Positions 39,650 through 57,196 of a stretch of 64,000 nucleotides of DNA are shown in pieces. Source of the stretch: a virus; the IMG/VR virus record IMGVR_UViG_3300045988_171124; one strand, given 5' to 3'. The position numbers were made by a program, and so were the translations under genes. Below the pieces are notes generated by a model that saw nothing but the letters and a program-made list of their open reading frames with translations, was not told the DNA's origin and did no database searches. Position 1 is the stretch's first letter, and each line of letters opens with the position of its first letter.

Positions 39650-40090
39650 GTGGACGAATACAAACAGTTTGATATTGTTTACGCTGATCTTTCTAGTAAA
39701 GGAACCATAGGATCTGAGCAGAAAGGTATACGACCTGTGATAATCATTCAAAATGATACCGGCAACATTCACAGTCCAACTGTTCTTGTAATGGCGCTTA
39801 CAAAGGAACTTAAGAAAGCAAATCAGCCAACCCATTACATAATTAGGAAGAATAATGCGAATGGGTTGAAATTTGATTCGATGGTATTAGGGGAGACTAT
39901 TACACAGATCTCAAAGCAGCGTATTAAACAGAAAATTGGTGTAGTAGATAATACCGCAGATAAAGATGGAATTATTGGAACATATATGGCTAATCTTACT
40001 GGAAAAAGTAGATATGGAAATCCATTATGGACCAAGATTACACAGCTTTTCTGTAAATTGGTTAAGGAGGGGCAAATATGTGCGAATTGA
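39650..40090 (+). CDS. mazF: MazF/PemK-family endoribonuclease toxin
   Basis: 146 aa; GTG start after AAAGGAAG. FDIVYADLS...GSEQKGIRPVIIIQNDTGN...PTVLVMALTKE...THYIIRKNNANGLKFDSMVLGETITQISKQRI matches the MazF/PemK pattern. No MazE-like gene is evident upstream. Confidence 0.8.
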   Translation: MDEYKQFDIVYADLSSKGTIGSEQKGIRPVIIIQNDTGNIHSPTVLVMALTKELKKANQPTHYIIRKNNANGLKFDSMVLGETITQISKQRIKQKIGVVDNTADKDGIIGTYMANLTGKSRYGNPLWTKITQLFCKLVKEGQICAN

Positions 40091-48132: not shown

Positions 48133-48695
48133 GAGATCCAAAGAGAATTGATAAATTTTGTGATGAAATTAAAAGAATATGGAAAGACAATGTTCCAGAT
48201 TGGAGATTTGGGCAGCTGATAAGTAATTTTGAATACTGGCTTAAAGGTAAGGGAATTGATATGTTCTTTCCGGAAGAAAAAGAAATGCTTAGATTATTTA
48301 AAGAATTTCTTGGCGTAAATGATACAGGAAATGAAAAAAAGATATGGGACGAAATGATGTTTTGTTCGCCACTTGATTTCAAAGATCTTGATGGAAATAA
48401 ATATGACCAATGGCCAGAGGGTGTCATTTATACTCCTGGAATAAAATTAACTGGAATATTAAAAAAGAAAGCGAGAACAAATTATTGTGGAGTGACTACA
48501 AAAGATGCAAAAAAGATAATTGACAATATATCTGATAAGCGAAAACAAAATGTAAAAGTTGTTATTGGAAATAGAGCAGAAGTCTGTGATGCAATTTTAT
48601 ATATTATCAAATCTAATTACGGATTAATTGTATCTGTCGATGATGCTGAAGAAATTAAATTCTGTGAAGAACTTTTTGAAAAGGCAACAACTTAA
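48129..48695 (+). CDS. hypothetical protein
   Basis: Track ORF; TTG start overlapping the previous TGA. Confidence 0.6.
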   Translation: MRDPKRIDKFCDEIKRIWKDNVPDWRFGQLISNFEYWLKGKGIDMFFPEEKEMLRLFKEFLGVNDTGNEKKIWDEMMFCSPLDFKDLDGNKYDQWPEGVIYTPGIKLTGILKKKARTNYCGVTTKDAKKIIDNISDKRKQNVKVVIGNRAEVCDAILYIIKSNYGLIVSVDDAEEIKFCEELFEKATT

Positions 48696-48742
48696 AATTG
48701 GAGTTTTATCGGGTGAATAATTTTATAAAAGGAGAATGGAAA

Positions 48743-48910
48743 ATGAGTAATTTAGTTATTAAAAAATATGATTGCCAAAAATGTGTAAAAGATAACTGGT
48801 GTGATTATAAGAAATATCAGGATAAATTTGAAAGCAATGTAGAAGAGCAGTTTAGAGATAAAAATGAGGTAATGTTTGAAATAAGCTGTAAGTTCTATGA
48901 AGAGGCATAA
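48743..48910 (+). CDS. small hypothetical protein
   Basis: Track ORF 48698..48910 trimmed to ATG 48743 after AAAGGAGA. Confidence 0.55.
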   Translation: MSNLVIKKYDCQKCVKDNWCDYKKYQDKFESNVEEQFRDKNEVMFEISCKFYEEA

Positions 48911-49000
48911 GTTGAATTTCTGGAATAAGTGATAATGAAAAATGGAAGTAATGAATGTGAGGTGATGATAGATATGATTGATTGAGATTTAAATAAAAAT

Positions 49001-49304
49001 GTTGTTTATTACAAAATATAAATTAATAGGTATACAAAACGATAGGATTACAAAAGAGTATATCATTGATGTTTTGTAACCATGTAAATTAAGAGGTATA
49101 CAAAACGGTCATACTGAAGAAGTAAATGAAAAATATGTTTTGTAACCATGTAAATTAAGAGGTATACAAAACCAGAGAGTTACCATCCTTTGCTTGTCCC
49201 TTGTTTTGTAACCATGTAAATTAAGAGGTATACAAAACACTGAGCTGGACAGGGCAGAACAGGAGCGAGTTTTGTAACCATGTAAATTAAGAGGTATACA
49301 AAAC
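49001..49304 (+). CRISPR. mini-CRISPR array: 4 identical 36-nt repeats plus 1 degenerate repeat, 4 spacers of 30 nt
   Basis: GTTTTGTAACCATGTAAATTAAGAGGTATACAAAAC at 49071-49106, 49137-49172, 49203-49238 and 49269-49304. A degenerate 40-nt copy sits at 49001-49040 (last 22 nt match 21/22). Unique 30-nt spacers at 49041-49070, 49107-49136, 49173-49202 and 49239-49268. Confidence 0.9.
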
Positions 49305-49548
49305 CTCAAAGTATAGTTTTATACCTCTTATTTTAAGGCACTTCTATGAAATAGACTAAGAGAAATCTACGTTATAAAAAGATAATATGTTATGGTGTCG
49401 CTCTAGCTGTAATTATATCGTTTGTACCTAAACATACACTGTGCCGAACATGATTGGTGTAAGTGATACAAACATGTAACTTTTTATAACATTGTCGAAG
49501 AGCATGACCAATTTTAAATTGAGATTATATTATAAAGGAAATAAAAAT
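49305..49548 (+). ncRNA. candidate anti-repeat plus omega-RNA/tracrRNA-like scaffold between array and iscB
   Basis: GTTTTATACCTCTTA (49316-49330) is complementary to the 3' part of the repeat (TAAGAGGTATACAAAAC). The remaining ~220 nt are ORF-free, contain long-range complementarity (GTTTGTA ... TACAAAC), and end at the iscB start. Boundaries and strand are inferred, not demonstrated. Confidence 0.5.
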
Positions 49549-51288
49549 ATGAATTATATGGATTTTGTATTAATTGTGGATAAAAATAATAAACCATGCA
49601 TACCAATAAAAAATGGTAAAGCAGGTTATTTATTAAGAGAACATAAAGCAGAAATTATAAATCACGAGCCATTAGTTATCAAAAGAACTGATGATTATAA
49701 TTCGGATTTAGAAAATAGAGATATATTTGAATTAAAAGTAGATAGTGGATATTTAAATATCGGATTTTCCGTAAGCGATAATGAGCATGAATATATTGCA
49801 GGTCAAGTTGAAATGCTAAACGGAATGAGTAATAGATTGTTAGAAAGAAAATCTATGCGTAGTTCCAGAAGAAATCGTTTACGTTATAGAAAAAATAAGA
49901 ACATTGATTATAAAACAGTACATAATCCTACATATAAAAATGGAAATGAAGATGGATGGTTTGCACCGTCTATTGTACATAAAATGGAAACGCATATCAG
50001 AATCATTGAGCAATTAAAACAATGGGTCCCAATCGATAAAGTTATTGTAGAGGTGGCAAATTTTGACATTGCTGCAATGGATGCATATTTAAAGGACGGA
50101 ACTATTTTAAATGGAAAAGATTATCAAAATGGTGAAATGAAAGGATATGAGAATGTTGTATCTTATGTAAGAGCCAGAGATAATTATTCTTGTTACTTTT
50201 GCAATAAGAAAAAGAAAAAAGATGGTACACTAAAAGAGAAACCAAAAAGAATAGAAGTACACCATAAAATTCCAAGATCCTGGGGAGGTACTAATAATCC
50301 AGGAAATTTAATTTGCGTATGTCAAGGATGTCATCAGAAAATACATTCGAATAATAATAACAACAAATATTTTAAAGAATTATTAGAACAAGCTTTACAA
50401 GAAAATACATTTAAAGATTCTACATATATGAATATTGTTAGATGGGAATTATTAAACAGACTTACTGAAAAATATCCAGAGTTTGATATTGAAGCTGAAT
50501 ATGGTTATAACACAAAAATTAATAGAAAAGAAGCAGGTTTGAGAAAATTCCATTATAATGATGCAGTTTGTATAAAAGAATTTAAGAATACAACTTTATC
50601 TAAAAAAGTATTTATTGTCGAACAAAAGCGTTGTAATGATAGAAAAATGGAAAATTTTGCAGATGCTAAATATATAGATTCAAGAGATGGTAAAAAGAAA
50701 AGTGGAAATGATTTAAAAGTAATTAGGCATAGTACTAAATCAAAACGTTCTACAAACAAAGAACATATTGATAATGAAAGAGTCTTTAGAAAAGAGAAAG
50801 TATCTAAAGGTAAAATACAATTTGAGTGTCATTCATATTGCGTAAAACCAGGAGATTTAATATACATAAAAGAAGGTAAACATAAAGGGAAAATTGCAGA
50901 AGTTTCTACAATACAGATTGTAGGCGGAAAAATTCCTAATCCGATAATTGATATTAATGAGATAAATAATAAAAAAATTGATTTCAACAGAGAGTTGAAA
51001 AAAAGAAAAACAATTTCTAATATGACTGATTATCAAAAGAGTTTTGCAAAATATCAAATTAGATTTACATATAAAGAATCTGATGCAGATGGACCATCTA
51101 TAACGCTTACGCAAAAAGAATATGAAAAGCTTAAAGAAAATAAATCAGATAGAGTAAAAATTATTCGTACCAGACGTGGATTAGTTTGGAGAGAGTACGA
51201 CAGACTTACATATGAAGCTGAAAATATGGATCAGGAAGAAAAGAAGTTAGAAGTAAAAAATAAGAAACAAGAATTAAAAGCTGCATAA
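49549..51288 (+). CDS. iscB: IscB-type RNA-guided nuclease (PLMP-RuvC-bridge helix-HNH-RuvC), CRISPR-associated
   Basis: Track ORF 49492..51288 trimmed to ATG 49549 after AAAGGA. PLMP-like N-terminus NKPCIPIKNGKAGYLLREHKAEII. RuvC-I ELKVDSGYLNIGFSV. Arg-rich helix RKSMRSSRRNRLRYRKNK. GWFAPSIVHK. RuvC-II VIVEVANFD. HNH CYFC...HHKIPRSWGGTNNPGNLICVCQGCHQKIH. RuvC-III HYNDAVCI. No REC-size insertion. About 580 aa. Confidence 0.8.
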   Translation: MNYMDFVLIVDKNNKPCIPIKNGKAGYLLREHKAEIINHEPLVIKRTDDYNSDLENRDIFELKVDSGYLNIGFSVSDNEHEYIAGQVEMLNGMSNRLLERKSMRSSRRNRLRYRKNKNIDYKTVHNPTYKNGNEDGWFAPSIVHKMETHIRIIEQLKQWVPIDKVIVEVANFDIAAMDAYLKDGTILNGKDYQNGEMKGYENVVSYVRARDNYSCYFCNKKKKKDGTLKEKPKRIEVHHKIPRSWGGTNNPGNLICVCQGCHQKIHSNNNNNKYFKELLEQALQENTFKDSTYMNIVRWELLNRLTEKYPEFDIEAEYGYNTKINRKEAGLRKFHYNDAVCIKEFKNTTLSKKVFIVEQKRCNDRKMENFADAKYIDSRDGKKKSGNDLKVIRHSTKSKRSTNKEHIDNERVFRKEKVSKGKIQFECHSYCVKPGDLIYIKEGKHKGKIAEVSTIQIVGGKIPNPIIDINEINNKKIDFNRELKKRKTISNMTDYQKSFAKYQIRFTYKESDADGPSITLTQKEYEKLKENKSDRVKIIRTRRGLVWREYDRLTYEAENMDQEEKKLEVKNKKQELKAA

Positions 51289-51296
51289 AAAAGGAG

Positions 51297-51431
51297 ATGA
51301 TCATTATAGACTCAGAAGAGAAAAATACTCAACAGTCCATTCTGCGTAAACACTTCGAGATGCTGTATCCAGAGAAGCTTAAGGATGATGAATGGATAAG
51401 ACTGGTTGGAGTAAGGAAAGGTGTTTATTAA
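51297..51431 (+). CDS. questionable small ORF (44 aa), locally GC-richer
   Basis: ATG 51297 directly abuts AAGGAG (poor spacing). It ends 1 nt before the GIY-YIG start. Confidence 0.3.
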   Translation: MIIIDSEEKNTQQSILRKHFEMLYPEKLKDDEWIRLVGVRKGVY

Positions 51432-51432
51432 A

Positions 51433-52740
51433 ATGGGAAATTATGTTTATAAATATGTCTATGATAATGAAATTATTTATATTGGTAAAAATGATACTGA
51501 TCTTACTTCTAGGTTAAATCGACATGGAAAACCTGGTGATAATATTCCAGAAGAAGGTTGGGATGAAATAAATAATTCAGACATTTTTTATTGTGAACTA
51601 GCTAATAGAATTATGTCAGATGTTGTAGAAAGTGAATTAATTAGAAGATACAAGCCAAAATACAACAAAGCAAAAACTTCAGAATGGTCCGGATTAGAAT
51701 TTGTGGAACCAAAATGGGAAAAATACAACAAAGAAAAATTATCTAACAAAAGGGATACTGAATATAAGTTTTATGAAGATCAGATAGAAACAGACTATGA
51801 TAGAACAATGCGAATTATAAACGGTGGAAAGGAAACATTAACAAACGAAATTAATCTTCTTATAGACAAAATGTATAACTTAAGAAGAGAAATAAGATTT
51901 CTAAAAGATATAAAAAAAGAAAACTTTGTAATGAAAAAAATAAGAGTGGAACGAAGATATTCCTATGAAGAAATGATTAATTTCTACCAATATTTAAATT
52001 GTGATTCAAATGTGAAATTTACATCAACTGTTCAAAATGAAAATGGAAATACGTTATGTCATGTTGAATTTTGGTGTGAAAATAAAACAGTTAAATGTAA
52101 GTTAGAATATTATGACGAAGACAAAAAAGATTATGTAACTGATATTAAGTTGGTTTGTGAAGATGAATATATACGCGGTGTGGTTTATTTTAATGGCAGC
52201 ATTCAGTCTACATATGGATTAGTCGCAGAAACAAACAATCATTATTATATAAATGATGTAATTGTATTATCTAATTATAAAAAATTAAATATAGAGAAAG
52301 AAAAATTAATAGAAGATATAAATACTGCTATTAAAATTGATTGTCATTGTGGAAGGAATATATCATATAAAGAATTTATAGAAAATATTGATTTTTATCA
52401 AAAATATTATTGGAGTTTTTCTTTTTCAATGCACAACAATCAAGTTCAGTATGATTTTTGTTCTTATAAAGAAAGGGATGGATGGAGGTTTAATCATAAT
52501 CTTATTTGTATAAAGAAAGAAAAAAATCTTTTGTGTAATGGGGAAACTATTGCGGTCGAATATGAAGAAGTAGATGTATTAGATAATTATAAAGAATTTA
52601 AATTTGACGTAACTTATAGATTAAAAAGCAATATTGAATATTATAAGAAAAATTTAGAAGCAATAAATCATAATATAAGAAATATGGAAATTCAATATCC
52701 ATCTTTATTTGTAGACAGATATGATTATAGTCCGCTATAA
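51433..52740 (+). CDS. GIY-YIG nuclease-domain protein with long unknown C-terminal region
   Basis: Track ORF trimmed to ATG 51433. YVYKYVYDNEIIYIGKNDTDLTSRLNRH...VESELIRRYKPKYNKA matches the GIY/YIG/Arg/Glu/Asn signature. 435 aa. Confidence 0.7.
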   Translation: MGNYVYKYVYDNEIIYIGKNDTDLTSRLNRHGKPGDNIPEEGWDEINNSDIFYCELANRIMSDVVESELIRRYKPKYNKAKTSEWSGLEFVEPKWEKYNKEKLSNKRDTEYKFYEDQIETDYDRTMRIINGGKETLTNEINLLIDKMYNLRREIRFLKDIKKENFVMKKIRVERRYSYEEMINFYQYLNCDSNVKFTSTVQNENGNTLCHVEFWCENKTVKCKLEYYDEDKKDYVTDIKLVCEDEYIRGVVYFNGSIQSTYGLVAETNNHYYINDVIVLSNYKKLNIEKEKLIEDINTAIKIDCHCGRNISYKEFIENIDFYQKYYWSFSFSMHNNQVQYDFCSYKERDGWRFNHNLICIKKEKNLLCNGETIAVEYEEVDVLDNYKEFKFDVTYRLKSNIEYYKKNLEAINHNIRNMEIQYPSLFVDRYDYSPL

Positions 52741-54608: not shown

Positions 54609-55511
54609 ATGGGATGGGGAGAATGGGATACAAATAGTTTTATAAGATATTCAACATCAAAGGGATTAGCGACAGATTCATTAGGGTTTGTTACTTCAAG
54701 TGTTTCTAATCAGGAAATGTTTAAGGCAAGATCTCTTGATCCAGTACTTGATCCAAACAATGTTATTAGAGAATGTTGCGATTCAGAAGATCATCCAAAT
54801 ACATTACCAGTTGTGATTGCACTTGATGTAACTGGATCTATGGGGCAAGCTGCAGTTGAGGTAGCAAAAAAACTTAATGGAATTATGACAAAACTTTATG
54901 AAAAAATTGCAGATGTTGAATTTATGATTATGGGTATTGGAGATTTATCATATGATTATAATCCAATTCAAGCATCTCAATTTGAATCAGATATAAGGAT
55001 TACAGAGCAACTTGATAAAATTTACTTTGAATTTGGCGGTGGTGGAAATGGATTTGAGTCATATAGTGCTGCATGGTATTTTGGAACTCATCACACTAAA
55101 CTTGATTGCTGGAATCGTGGTAAACGAGGAATTATTATTACAATCGGTGACGAGAGATTGAATCCTTATCTTCCAATCCGAAGTAGATGTTCTGGTTTAA
55201 TTGCAACACTTGGAGATAATTTAGAAAAAGATGTGGAAACTCCAGAGCTATTTGAAGAAGCTTCTAAGAAATTCGACATTTATCATATTCATGTAAATCA
55301 TGGTAGTAACTATGACAAAGAAGGTATTGAAAAATCCTTTAAGTCTATTATTGAAGAAAATCATTTCAAAGAAGCGACTTTAGATAATATTGCAGAGACT
55401 ATTGTAAATATTATTGTTGATGCAGCTGAGAACGATGTTAATACAATTATAACACCTGCGACAACACCTACTCAGGTAAGTACAAATGAGAATGGTGAAA
55501 TTGTTTGGTAA
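54609..55511 (+). CDS. von Willebrand factor A (vWA) domain protein
   Basis: 300 aa; GAGGAGGA SD. MIDAS-like VVIALDVTGSMG followed by an alternating beta/alpha pattern (IIITIGDERL). Confidence 0.6.
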   Translation: MGWGEWDTNSFIRYSTSKGLATDSLGFVTSSVSNQEMFKARSLDPVLDPNNVIRECCDSEDHPNTLPVVIALDVTGSMGQAAVEVAKKLNGIMTKLYEKIADVEFMIMGIGDLSYDYNPIQASQFESDIRITEQLDKIYFEFGGGGNGFESYSAAWYFGTHHTKLDCWNRGKRGIIITIGDERLNPYLPIRSRCSGLIATLGDNLEKDVETPELFEEASKKFDIYHIHVNHGSNYDKEGIEKSFKSIIEENHFKEATLDNIAETIVNIIVDAAENDVNTIITPATTPTQVSTNENGEIVW

Positions 55512-55533: not shown

Positions 55534-56631
55534 ATGAAAGACATTAAGATTGTGGCTGGAGCAAACTGGGGAGACGAAGGAAAAGGACTAATGACTGATT
55601 ACTTTTCACAGAAACCTAATAGTATTGTAGTATGTTCTAATGGTGGAAGTCAAAGAGGACATACTGTGGTAACACCGGACGGAATCAGACATGTCTTTCA
55701 TCATTTTGGTTCTGGAACTTTTAATGGTGCTGCTACATATTTACCAAAAGAATTTATTGTAAATCCACTTATTTTTGCTCAAGAATATAAAGAACTGATA
55801 AACAATAAGGTTGTTCCTAATATTTACGTTCATAATGATTGTATGGTTTCGACTCCGTATGATATGATGGCAAACCAGGTCATCGAAGAGAGTCGTGGAA
55901 AACAAAAGCATGGCAGTTGTGGATTTGGAATTTTTGAAACCATTAAGAGATATAAAAATGGTATAACCGATTTTGATAAAATAAAGAACTATTATCTTGA
56001 AAAATTTGAACGAGATAAAATTCTACTATCGGACGATTGGAAAAGAATATTTAATGATCCAGGAATAAATGATCATTTTATAGAAGATTTGGATTTTATG
56101 AATGAACACATTAAATCAATTAGAGATGAAAGCTTTCTAAATATGTTTGATCATATTATTTTTGAAGCCGCTCAAGGATTACTACTCGATCAGAATAATC
56201 TAAAATATTTCCCATATCTTACGCCATCTAATACAGGTCTGAAAAATCCCAAAGAAATTATTGAAAGAATTGATTGGTATGATGAATTGAATATAGAAGT
56301 ATGTTATGTGACACGTACATATTTAACTAGGCATGGTGCCGGTCCGTTTCCAACTGAGTGCGATAAAGAAGAAATTAATTCTGAAATGCATGATAGGACG
56401 AATGTACCTAACCCACATCAGGATACTTTACGTTACGGAAAGTTAGATTTAAATGAGTTATATCAAAGAGTGATGGAAGATGTTGGAAATTATAAATGTA
56501 AGAAATCTATTGCCATTACACACTGTAATGAATTTAGAATGGATGAATATAAGTTTGAGAAGTTATTTTTAGGATGGAATATTTATAAATCAGATGGTGA
56601 AACACATAATAGCATAAAGGAGACAAAATAA
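55534..56631 (+). CDS. short adenylosuccinate synthetase (PurA/PurZ)-family protein
   Basis: 365 aa. GANWGDEGKG (P-loop), GGSQRGHT, HHFGSG, FEAAQGLLLD, FPYLTPSNT and RHGAGPFPTE are collinear with PurA motifs. GSCGFGI replaces TTGRGIG, and no TTGR-x-RR motif is present. Confidence 0.7.
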   Translation: MKDIKIVAGANWGDEGKGLMTDYFSQKPNSIVVCSNGGSQRGHTVVTPDGIRHVFHHFGSGTFNGAATYLPKEFIVNPLIFAQEYKELINNKVVPNIYVHNDCMVSTPYDMMANQVIEESRGKQKHGSCGFGIFETIKRYKNGITDFDKIKNYYLEKFERDKILLSDDWKRIFNDPGINDHFIEDLDFMNEHIKSIRDESFLNMFDHIIFEAAQGLLLDQNNLKYFPYLTPSNTGLKNPKEIIERIDWYDELNIEVCYVTRTYLTRHGAGPFPTECDKEEINSEMHDRTNVPNPHQDTLRYGKLDLNELYQRVMEDVGNYKCKKSIAITHCNEFRMDEYKFEKLFLGWNIYKSDGETHNSIKETK

Positions 56632-56632
56632 A

Positions 56633-57196
56633 ATGAAAACTAAAAACTCAACATGGAAAGTTGTATTAATCGCAATAGCAATTATTATTGCTGTAGCTCT
56701 TATGGCTGTATTTGGAGTCCAGAGCTACATGAATAGGGCAATCAGTATGGAAGAACAGGTATCAACCGCAAAATCTGATGTAAATGTACAGGAGAAGCGA
56801 AGAGTAGACCTGCTTGGTAACCTGGTTGATTGCGTAAAGAATTATGATAAACATGAATATGAGACATTAAAAGCAATCGTGGATGGTCGCTCATCTAATG
56901 ATGATAAGGCTACTGAAATTAAAACTTCTATTAAGGCAGTATCTGAAGCATATCCGGAATTAAAATCCAATGAGAATTATAAACAGCTTATGAATGAGCT
57001 GGCAACAACTGAAAATCTGATTGCAAATTATAGGGAGAACTACAACAAACAGGTCAAAATTTATAATGCGTATGTGAGAAAGTTTCCGCAGAGAATGTTT
57101 TTGGATTTTCTTGGATATGAGAAGCAAGAATATAAATTATTAGACTTTGGTGATGATCTCCAGGATGCACCACAGGATTTGTTTGCGGAGGATTAA
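56633..57196 (+). CDS. lemA: LemA-family membrane protein
   Basis: 187 aa. N-terminal TM helix, then VNVQEKRRVDLLGNLVDCVKNYDKHEYETL...AYPELKSNENYKQLMNELATTENLIANYRENYNKQVKIYNAYVRKFPQRMF, the LemA pattern. Confidence 0.8.
   Translation: MKTKNSTWKVVLIAIAIIIAVALMAVFGVQSYMNRAISMEEQVSTAKSDVNVQEKRRVDLLGNLVDCVKNYDKHEYETLKAIVDGRSSNDDKATEIKTSIKAVSEAYPELKSNENYKQLMNELATTENLIANYRENYNKQVKIYNAYVRKFPQRMFLDFLGYEKQEYKLLDFGDDLQDAPQDLFAED

Follow-up and report, generated by a model that had tools for sequence, protein, structure and literature searches.

A probable CRISPR-associated IscB effector module of a jumbo gut phage, with no adaptation genes in the 64 kb examined

What does an IscB nuclease gene do directly behind a CRISPR array in a phage genome, and where do its spacers come from? 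The question is raised by a 64,000-nucleotide (nt) stretch of viral DNA, IMG/VR record IMGVR_UViG_3300045988_171124 (the window, meaning this whole stretch), in which a short array, an omega-RNA and an iscB gene follow one another between positions 49,001 and 51,288. The answer favored here, with a probability of about three in four on the evidence of sequence comparison and prediction, is that the locus is a phage-borne CRISPR-associated IscB, that is, a minimal type II-like effector module without adaptation genes of its own in the 64 kb examined. Its features, in window coordinates, are the following:

49005–49040, + strand: degenerate terminal repeat at the trailer (oldest) end, with 9 mismatches to the consensus repeat
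49041–49070, + strand: spacer A (S1), the oldest, 27/30 identical to spacer L of same-species sister arrays
49071–49106, + strand: repeat 1, 36 nt, same as the other three full repeats
49107–49136, + strand: spacer B (S2), 30 nt, 27% GC, with short chance-level matches only
49137–49172, + strand: repeat 2, identical full repeat
49173–49202, + strand: spacer C (S3), 30 nt, 47% GC in an element of 31.7% GC
49203–49238, + strand: repeat 3, identical full repeat
49239–49268, + strand: spacer D (S4), 30 nt, 60% GC, directly 5' of the repeat joined to the anti-repeat
49269–49304, + strand: repeat 4, predicted from fold and duplex to form the 5' strand of the omega-RNA's extended P1 helix
49305–49311, − strand: junction motif, CTCAAAG on the + strand and CTTTGAG/GTTT on the − strand, resembling a type II-A leader-anchoring sequence
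49316–49352, + strand: anti-repeat, the tracrRNA-like (trans-activating CRISPR RNA-like) 5' part of the omega-RNA, from repeat/anti-repeat duplex energies
49317–49508, + strand: omega-RNA (HEARO) scaffold, from Rfam RF02033 and covariation
49534–49541, + strand: ribosome-binding site AAAGGAAA, 3' of the conserved terminal hairpin and 5' of the iscB ATG
49549–51288, + strand: IscB RNA-guided endonuclease, 579 amino acids (aa), from profiles, catalytic residues and fold

The array occupies 49005–49304 on the + strand with a period of 66 nt and comprises one degenerate and four identical 36-nt repeats (consensus GTTTTGTAACCATGTAAATTAAGAGGTATACAAAAC; exact copies start at 49071, 49137, 49203 and 49269) and four unique 30-nt spacers, and a gap of exactly 244 nt separates its end at 49304 from the iscB ATG at 49549. 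All of this agrees with a preliminary description of the stretch, made from the letters alone. The order on the + strand is array, anti-repeat, omega-RNA scaffold and iscB. Its direct repeats are conserved and its spacers are unique, uniform in length and different from those of related genomes, which marks it as a bona fide CRISPR array. A minus-strand 66-aa open reading frame (ORF) across the array (49109–49309) encodes an internally repeated peptide and was rejected as an artefact of the repeats. The terminator scan of 48650–51500 yielded no + strand site and one terminator-like site on the − strand, and the promoter scan was uninformative (23 sites against 18.9 ± 3.8 expected in shuffled sequence).

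The nuclease is an IscB by profile, by catalytic residues and by fold. Its start is the ATG at 49549, as in homologues (MNY.../MEY...), the TTG-initiated 598-aa ORF being a mechanical maximum. The NCBIfam equivalog NF040563 (guided_IscB) was matched at residues 7–342 with 251.6 bits against a cutoff of 175, and the Pfam families RRXRR and HNH with 114 and 31.6 bits, respectively; phmmer searches of the PDB sequences retrieved HfmIscB 9k2z (3e-25), OgeuIscB 7xht/7utn and other IscBs. The AlphaFold2 model, built from a 57-sequence alignment, had a predicted local distance difference test score (pLDDT) of 76.4 and a predicted template modelling score of 0.64, with a pLDDT of about 90 or more over the N-terminal 90 residues. 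Its eight best Foldseek matches in the PDB were IscB-omegaRNA-DNA complexes (E 6e-23 to 6e-16); 8csz (6e-23), 9liq, 9nvu, 7utn, 9k30 and 7xht were listed first, followed by IsrB and by the type II-D Cas9 9lgi (3e-9). The motifs comprise RuvC-I (D65), an Arg-rich helix (~96–117), GWFAPS (136–141), RuvC-II (E168), the HNH domain (C215/C218, H238-H239, N253, C258/C261-H262) and RuvC-III (H335/D338-A339), all invariant or nearly so within the clade; D65, E168, H238/H239, N253, H262, H335 and D338 are invariant in the 57 sequences, and the RuvC and HNH catalytic residues are shown by the alignment to be intact. The PLMP motif is present as the variant P-C-I-P (P16–P19), the profile and PDB alignments beginning at residues 4–7. 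Only about 25 residues separate the bridge helix from GWFAPS, so that an insertion of the size of a recognition (REC) lobe is absent. The C-terminal KOW/SH3-like region (433–516) contains a sub-clade-specific insertion of about 40 aa (~459–500) and is followed by a charged tail, which together account for the extra length over IscBs of about 455 aa. The domain order of an IscB rather than a Cas9, claimed earlier for an ORF of about 580 aa, was thus upheld by the motifs, the NCBIfam score, the fold and the lack of a REC lobe, while score and fold also dispose of the possibility that the protein is only an HNH homing endonuclease.

The guide scaffold was found in the gap between repeats and gene, where the preliminary description had proposed a covariance-model search. 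The full-length RF02033 (HEARO) model matched with 56.4 bits (E 1.1e-10), and RNAalifold on 17 diverged lineages predicted 42 pairs, 22 of which are kept by compensatory changes. The predicted pairs include G-U pairs, which places the RNA on the + strand; a conserved terminal hairpin lies 3' of the scaffold, before the ribosome-binding site. The last repeat is followed immediately by CTCAAAGTATA and then by the anti-repeat. In the minimum free energy fold of 49239–49548 the 3' two-thirds of repeat 4 are paired with 49316–49338, while duplex prediction pairs the first eight bases of the repeat, GUUUUGUA, with UAUGAAAU, just 5' of the conserved UAGAC core; every repeat is predicted to be able to pair over its full length with the 5' end of the omega-RNA. 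Since the 5' GUUUU of the repeat closes the helix beside the spacer, the spacer lies at the canonical omega-RNA guide position; for comparison, in the insertion sequence (IS)-type locus L060 (L numbers denote loci of relatives) the P1 insert is flanked by GTCAACTA...TAGTTGAT. The last repeat is physically continuous with the anti-repeat, so that this part of the locus reads as a natural single-guide RNA guided by the adjacent spacer, here spacer D, which by polarity would be the newest of the four.

The pairing of repeat and anti-repeat was also compared across lineages. The repeat of each lineage pairs most strongly with its own anti-repeat (mean −19.2 kcal/mol, against −10.7 ± 3.6 kcal/mol with foreign anti-repeats, taken from lineages with a repeat identity below 80%; 192 comparisons), which supports the co-evolution of the two sequences, as far as predicted energies can tell. 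Similarly, repeat 2, treated as a free CRISPR RNA (crRNA), is predicted to pair with the 5' region of the omega-RNA at −18.7 kcal/mol, against −9.4 ± 2.8 kcal/mol for shuffled partners, 3/500 of which equalled this value. The repeat:anti-repeat helix was not recovered by RNAalifold on the alignment, because indels shift its register, and duplex energies were used instead. At L084 (~2370–2400; compare L085), the 11-nt ATCAAA... loop that ordinarily separates the last repeat from the anti-repeat has given way to a 30-nt spacer-like sequence, TCTACGCACTGACTCCGATATACAGTTTCC, and this insert looks as if integration had taken the anti-repeat for a repeat.

The carrier of this locus is a jumbo gut phage of about 216 kb. 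Human-gut metagenomes contain the identical protein in 144 sample blocks, on contigs that are repeatedly 211–220 kb long (the longest 346 kb; IMGVR_UViG_3300029194_000001, for example, has 216,714 bp) and that IMG/VR classes as viral. The window has 31.7% GC and nearly all of its genes on one strand; besides numerous ORFans, these include a tyrosine integrase, members of PHROG families and toxin-antitoxin genes. None of its 217 ORFs was found to be Cas1, Cas2, Cas4, Csn2, Cas9 or Y1 TnpA, in accordance with the absence already stated for the whole 64 kb in the preliminary description; the scan compared 148 non-overlapping ORFs with PADLOC and Pfam (13 and 17 families, complete lists) and 69 displaced ORFs of at least 60 aa with Pfam. 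The two hallmarks of type II CRISPR-Cas, a REC-lobed Cas9 and a cas1-cas2 module, are therefore missing from these 64 kb. Additionally, the called genes around iscB, out to 10 kb in L001–L006 and to 3–4 kb in four other lineages, showed no cas Pfam family; further flank scans of relatives, in which cas genes were sought among the matches listed (25 families), provide partial evidence only.

The coupling of array and iscB extends to a whole clade. A profile search collected 27 IMG/VR contigs and about 30 metagenome contigs (41–99% identity), the carriers being viral contigs of 80–220 kb. The IMG/VR loci (27/27) all possess either an array or one or more repeats connected to the omega-RNA, and the same holds for nearly all 30 metagenome loci whose upstream sequence is long enough; where enough of this sequence is available, almost every locus of the clade shows 2 to 8 repeats and a few show a single one. 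The basal member, at 41% identity, has an array as well, whereas none of 44 loci of the IS-type outgroup has a coupled array. The nearest IS-type relatives have canonical HEARO RNAs (79–86 bits), Y1 TnpA and no array, and a sister of about 455 aa likewise carries Y1 TnpA and a canonical HEARO RNA; unlike in this sister group, Y1 TnpA is absent next to the clade members. Being clade-wide and absent from the IS-type sisters, the association with an array is regarded as a shared derived character of the phage-borne clade, and the absence of Y1 TnpA from the 217 ORFs and the clade flanks makes the locus a member of the IscB protein family and not of the transposon system. The clade was not found in 185,579 reference genomes (best match 33% identical) or among the GenBank phages (best match ~36–37% identical).

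Two outgroup cases were set aside. Clostridium phage c-st, the best GenBank phage relative, has an IS-type IscB with a truncated TnpA and is not a clade member. Periodic repeats occur at a single outgroup locus, L138, where an IS-type IscB of 33% identity and an unrelated type I-E array lie about 850 nt apart; the repeats of this array (L138:8941–9155; 29 nt, GTTTTCCCCGCG..., period 61) have no coupling to an anti-repeat or omega-RNA, and their proximity could be misread as a CRISPR-associated IscB. Within the clade, L025, L069 and L075 lack spacer-repeat units, their only repeat being joined to the anti-repeat as in an ordinary fixed-guide omega-RNA; single- and multi-guide forms thus coexist among close relatives.

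The spacers turn over, and do so from one end. Six contigs with the identical protein have the same four spacers, relatives at 98–99% protein identity have different ones, and at least 85 distinct spacers (77 + 8), almost all of 29–30 nt, were counted across the clade; the identical "spacers" in every relative that a non-CRISPR tandem repeat would show, a possibility raised in the preliminary description, were not seen. Among arrays of a single phage species whose IscB is identical (variant P0124), the spacer order from the distal to the omega-RNA-proximal end is L-M-N, L-M-O-P-Q (3 samples), L-M-O-R-S (2 samples) or L-R-S; the window array reads A-B-C-D, A being a drifted copy of L. The sibling pairs L023/L024, L035/L089 and L034/L074 similarly have distal spacers in common and differ in the proximal ones, and in nearly all relatives the repeats decay toward the IscB-distal end. 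From shared distal spacers, diverging proximal spacers and decaying distal repeats it follows that new spacers enter at the omega-RNA-proximal repeat. The term "adaptation-less", used for the locus in the preliminary description, consequently holds for the genes in the 64 kb examined and fails for the arrays, which are clearly still being extended.

The repeats, 36 nt long and of the form GTTTT...AAAAC, with spacers of 30 nt, are of a kind that we take to resemble type II-A repeats. At the variable end of the array, (A, T or C)TTTGAG/GTTT on the minus strand is found in 19/20 distinct lineage variants, the adjacent bases varying freely; rumen-type lineages have ATTTGAT instead, and the IS-type sisters, with their canonical HEARO RNAs, lack the motif in these RNAs. 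At the sequence level, this corresponds to a type II-A leader-repeat junction. In Group-1 type II-A loci (87/167), the leader has ATTTGAG/GTTT as its conserved 3' end (PMC5382924), and this motif was reported to be essential for spacer integration in Streptococcus thermophilus CRISPR1 (PMC5382924, citing Wei et al. 2015). The junction motif and the 36/30-nt geometry together suggest, on sequence grounds, that type II-A adaptation proteins of the host may extend the phage array in trans.

Targets were sought for the spacers of the window and of its relatives. BLAST of 11 spacers of the window species against GenBank phages and PLSDB gave no match, nor did exact scans of the 3' 20–22 nt of S1, S3 and S4 against IMG/VR or a search of spacer D against JGI metagenome contigs with a probe excluding the array; no convincing self-targeting match was found in the window or related loci. 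A-rich matches of 15–18 nt to spacer B were treated as chance, as was that of spacer L to the IscB gene of another lineage (21/30, with non-synonymous mismatches). Among the relatives, L035-S1 (27/30) and L032-S1 (25/30, on the opposite strand) both fall within L034:4506–4730, about 45 nt apart, in a 74-aa helix-turn-helix-like ORF of a sibling phage, and all 8 mismatches are synonymous third positions. This gene has a 79%-identical homologue in L074, but no copy turned up in the 6–10 kb flanking iscB to either side in the phages with these spacers; codon-degenerate probes for three recurrent spacers retrieved only the arrays themselves and the known L034 site. Three spacer pairs, moreover, are synonymous or conservative alleles of one coding site: L033-S3/L036-S1, with all four differences in one codon phase, L047-S3/S4, encoding MYPADE(V/A)(Q/E)M, and L049-S2/S3, encoding MW(F/Y)WH(N/D)P. 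Since the L047 and the L049 pair each consist of neighbors within one array, the same target site appears to have been sampled twice from diverged targets. As read from these alignments, the pattern is an arms-race signature with protein-coding targets in related phages. The spacer search suggested in the preliminary description was thus fruitless for the window's own four spacers, while two spacers of relatives matched a target, and its idea of a multi-guide system on a mobile genetic element (MGE), used in inter-element conflict, gained support for the clade from the viral contigs and these two matches.

A mechanism that would accommodate these observations can be outlined. The locus would be transcribed as a single + strand RNA, from which the upstream spacer-repeat units would serve as crRNAs, paired in trans with the tracrRNA-like omega-RNA and probably released through cleavage by host RNase III. 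The IscB complex would cut double-stranded DNA matching about 16–20 nt of the 3' end of the spacer, beside a target-adjacent motif (TAM). Host type II-A Cas1-Cas2(-Csn2-Cas9) would act in trans on the retained ATTTGAG/GTTT leader-repeat junction and, because this junction is located within the omega-RNA gene, where it reads on the other strand, each new spacer would land in the guide position of the cis single-guide RNA. The role of the system, supported in the relatives and presumed for the window, would be the exclusion of competing, closely related phages. The most far-reaching version, in which IscB is a self-contained minimal effector whose memory is written by the host through the retained leader anchor and used in warfare between sibling phages, as a living step in the coupling of IscB and its omega-RNA to an adaptation-competent array, is put forward tentatively, with the odds somewhat against it.

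Other explanations of what the locus is were considered. That the protein is a miniature, type II-D-like Cas9 is suggested by the presence of an array and a tracrRNA-like RNA, by a length of 579 aa, beyond that of a typical IscB, and by the fold match to 9lgi; it is nevertheless very improbable, since no REC lobe follows the bridge helix, the NCBIfam IscB cutoff is exceeded, the RNA belongs to the HEARO omega-RNAs, Cas9d is a fold match 14 orders of magnitude poorer than the IscB structures, and the extra length resides in the C-terminal-domain insertion and the tail. Hardly more credible is an ordinary IS200/IS605 OMEGA element, with a transposon-homing IscB and incidental duplications of the guide region as its tandem repeats. 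Protein and RNA do belong to the IscB and HEARO families, and L025, L069 and L075 have one repeat and no spacer; yet Y1 TnpA is lacking in the window and beside the clade members, unlike in the sister group, the locus has a syntenic, single-copy phage context across samples, and the spacers vary in sequence, keep a fixed length and, in relatives, trace to foreign coding sequence.

The origin and the aim of the spacers leave more room for debate. The turnover could have arisen without Cas1-Cas2 acting at a leader-anchoring sequence, if related phages infecting the same cell recombined or swapped cassettes with one another or with host arrays, CTCAAA being kept for a reason at the RNA level (P1 apex, protein contact or processing signal) or simply inherited from a captured type II array. 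The loci examined have no adaptation genes nearby, the L-R-S array of L148 beside L-M-O-R-S shows that recombinational deletion does occur, and the motif lies within the transcribed RNA. However, the divergence is strictly polarized, with common distal spacers in several independent sets, the spacers are uniformly 29–30 nt long, the distal repeats are degenerate, the motif sits exactly at the active end and matches one with a demonstrated role in integration, and recombination cannot by itself create new spacers from the coding genes of rivals; this explanation is therefore judged doubtful, although it deserves to be taken seriously. Considerably less probable is a complete but dispersed CRISPR-Cas system, in which the phage encodes its own Cas1-Cas2 (perhaps with Cas4 or Csn2) elsewhere in its ~216 kb: spacer acquisition is clearly ongoing and 64 kb of ~211–220 kb were covered, but no cas gene occurs among the 217 ORFs, no cas Pfam family was found near iscB in relatives, and adaptation genes normally adjoin their array. 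The spacers could finally be aimed at the bacterial host (chromosome, defence loci, resident prophages or plasmids), for host takeover or gene regulation, as the GC contents of spacers C and D and the lack of matches in viral collections might indicate. Against this, the only protospacers found lie in the gene of a sibling phage, spacer D is also absent from the metagenome contigs and no self or host match was identified, which makes host targets unlikely.

The favored interpretation, a phage-borne CRISPR-associated IscB with an array extended by the host, has to contend with several observations that count against it. The failure to find cas genes refers to 64 kb of a phage of ~211–220 kb, and the other ~150 kb could encode Cas1-Cas2. 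The HEARO score of 56.4 is below the Rfam gathering score of 83. The window's four spacers have no protospacer in GenBank phages, PLSDB, IMG/VR, JGI metagenome contigs or the window, spacers C and D (47% and 60% GC) are far richer in GC than phages of 31.7% GC, and the sibling-phage target consists of two matches, both imperfect, to one gene. In 185,579 reference genomes the exact repeat does not occur, so that neither a host nor a parent type II-A array with this repeat was identified. A host Cas9 that selects a protospacer-adjacent motif would do so on the side that is wrong for an IscB reading the other strand, and the host-adaptation model leaves the source of TAM-compatible spacers unexplained. 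The conservation of CTCAAA could, besides, reflect a constraint on the RNA, where this sequence would form the P1 apex.

CRISPR-associated IscB is a system of an already known kind, to which the window locus belongs because it shows every sequence-level character of it. Altae-Tran et al. 2021 (Science 374:57) reportedly described such IscBs. Their associations with CRISPR arose independently in several small IscB branches (PMC10734277), and they are viewed as intermediates between IscB and Cas9 (PMC12660989). RNA-guided cleavage has been demonstrated among them for DelIscB only, a 457-aa protein from an estuarine metagenome that cleaves DNA with the TAM NAC and a 16-nt guide; its non-coding RNA comprises repeats, spacers and an anti-repeat, and the repeat:anti-repeat hairpin can be shortened to a single-guide RNA (PMC12660989). 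The window locus shares with DelIscB an iscB preceded by repeats and spacers, an anti-repeat and an omega-RNA scaffold, and differs in its 579 aa and C-terminal-domain insertion, the two being set side by side by description only. Natural RNA processing, spacer supply and biological role of CRISPR-associated IscB are still open questions (PMC12660989, discussion). A survey by Metagenomi found 16% of HEARO/IscB contigs to be viral and called HEARO systems not CRISPR-associated (PMC9755519). In the searchable literature (Altae-Tran 2021 and the DelIscB sequence lying outside the comparison), carriage by a jumbo phage, polarized acquisition at the population level, a type II-A-like junction inside an omega-RNA gene with a polarity opposite to transcription, and targets in sibling phages appear to be undescribed.

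Compared with canonical IS200/IS605 IscBs (OgeuIscB 7utn/7xht/8csz; RF02033), family, fold, catalytic residues, omega-RNA core and the position of the guide directly 5' of P1 are the same, but here TnpA and a transposon context are lacking, P1 is split into repeat and anti-repeat, and several interchangeable guides replace one fixed guide. Type II-A systems such as S. thermophilus CRISPR1 share the dual-RNA logic, the ATTTGAG/GTTT-type junction with spacer addition at that site, and a degenerate trailer repeat; in the window, however, the effector is an IscB without a REC lobe, cas1, cas2 and csn2 are missing from the 64 kb, the "leader" is the omega-RNA gene, and transcription of the crRNAs runs toward the junction and not away from it. 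Al-Shayeb et al. 2020 are said to have described CRISPR-Cas systems of huge phages, and their short viral arrays can be likened to the one in the window. Type II-D Cas9d (PMC9755519, PMC11903963) is likewise a compact RuvC/HNH effector with an array and a tracrRNA, usually without adaptation genes, but has a REC domain and about 700 aa or more, and its fold match is much weaker than that of IscB.

Two systems resemble the locus in lifestyle. The mini-CRISPR arrays of archaeal viruses (Medvedeva et al. 2019, PMC6858448) are short viral arrays without adaptation genes whose spacers target related viruses, and are interpreted there as a means of superinfection exclusion; they reportedly come without an effector and rely on the Cas proteins of the host, whereas here the phage brings effector and guide scaffold. 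The type IV-A3 CRISPR of plasmids (Benz et al., 10.1101/2023.06.23.546257) is similarly MGE-borne, devoid of an adaptation module, variable in its spacers and engaged in inter-element conflict; its repeat and leader resemble those of the co-resident host system, and host Cas1/2e integrates in trans at the leader-repeat junction. It differs in type (IV/I-E against IscB/II-A) and in carrier (plasmid against phage), and in-trans acquisition is demonstrated there and inferred here.

The surroundings of the locus offered further observations. The slot just 3' of iscB is variable: the window has a 439-aa ORFan (51421–52740), L012–L015 a 574–607-aa protein with weak or faint HTH_36/TrmB matches, and L154/L155, whose IscB is 99% identical to that of the window, a radical-SAM protein. 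The GIY-YIG nuclease that the preliminary description had placed next to the locus did not find profile support, the gene at 51421–52740 having no GIY-YIG or other match in Pfam, PHROGs or NCBIfam, and the resemblance is one of motifs only. Farther downstream, an adenylosuccinate-synthetase-like gene (55534–56631, + strand) matches PHROG 1211 (E 2e-70), which is annotated as PurZ-type, of 2-aminoadenine/Z-genome phages, although its product scores far under the NCBIfam cutoffs (PurA 109 bits against 402, PurZ 42 bits against 300); should the phage modify its adenine, this would be relevant to self-protection from the nuclease. Its upstream neighbor (54609–55511) belongs to the conserved unknown family phrog_2971 (E 9e-74). 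A PemK/MazF-family toxin gene (39650–40090, + strand) is overlapped by a longer antisense ORF; PemK toxin genes also occur a few kb upstream of iscB in other lineages (e.g., L026:459–830) and beside the IS-type IscB of Clostridium phage c-st (CST144). Other accessory genes of the window, of sorts commonly met on mobile elements, encode an IS110-family transposase (Pfam Transposase_20, E 3e-19), HicA/HicB, a Lar restriction alleviation protein, LemA (56633–57196), a sigma-70 region-4 protein and one PHROG "virion structural protein". Gene orientation and GC skew switch near 4 kb (window 1–6000): the skew is negative up to ~4 kb and then strongly positive (0.15–0.40) over the remaining 58 kb, in which nearly all genes lie on the + strand, and the switch may mark a boundary of replication or of a transcription module.

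The one studied example of CRISPR-associated IscB has been treated mainly as an editing tool, and the present clade offers data on its natural history: dozens of loci in large phages, arrays that grow with polarity, a candidate cis-signal and targets in sibling phages. From a practical point of view, it provides a family of compact nucleases of 515–579 aa, with natural dual- and single-guide forms and many co-evolved repeat/anti-repeat variants. The conversion of an omega-RNA guide into an exchangeable crRNA, the use of host adaptation by an effector-only element and the deployment of IscB by phage against phage are thereby made testable. If the proposed mechanism is true, an insertion polarity opposite to transcription would make each captured spacer at once the guide of the encoded single-guide RNA, and the locus would be a living example of a step thought to have led to Cas9; the clade thus makes the transition from IscB to Cas9, and adaptation in trans, approachable by experiment.

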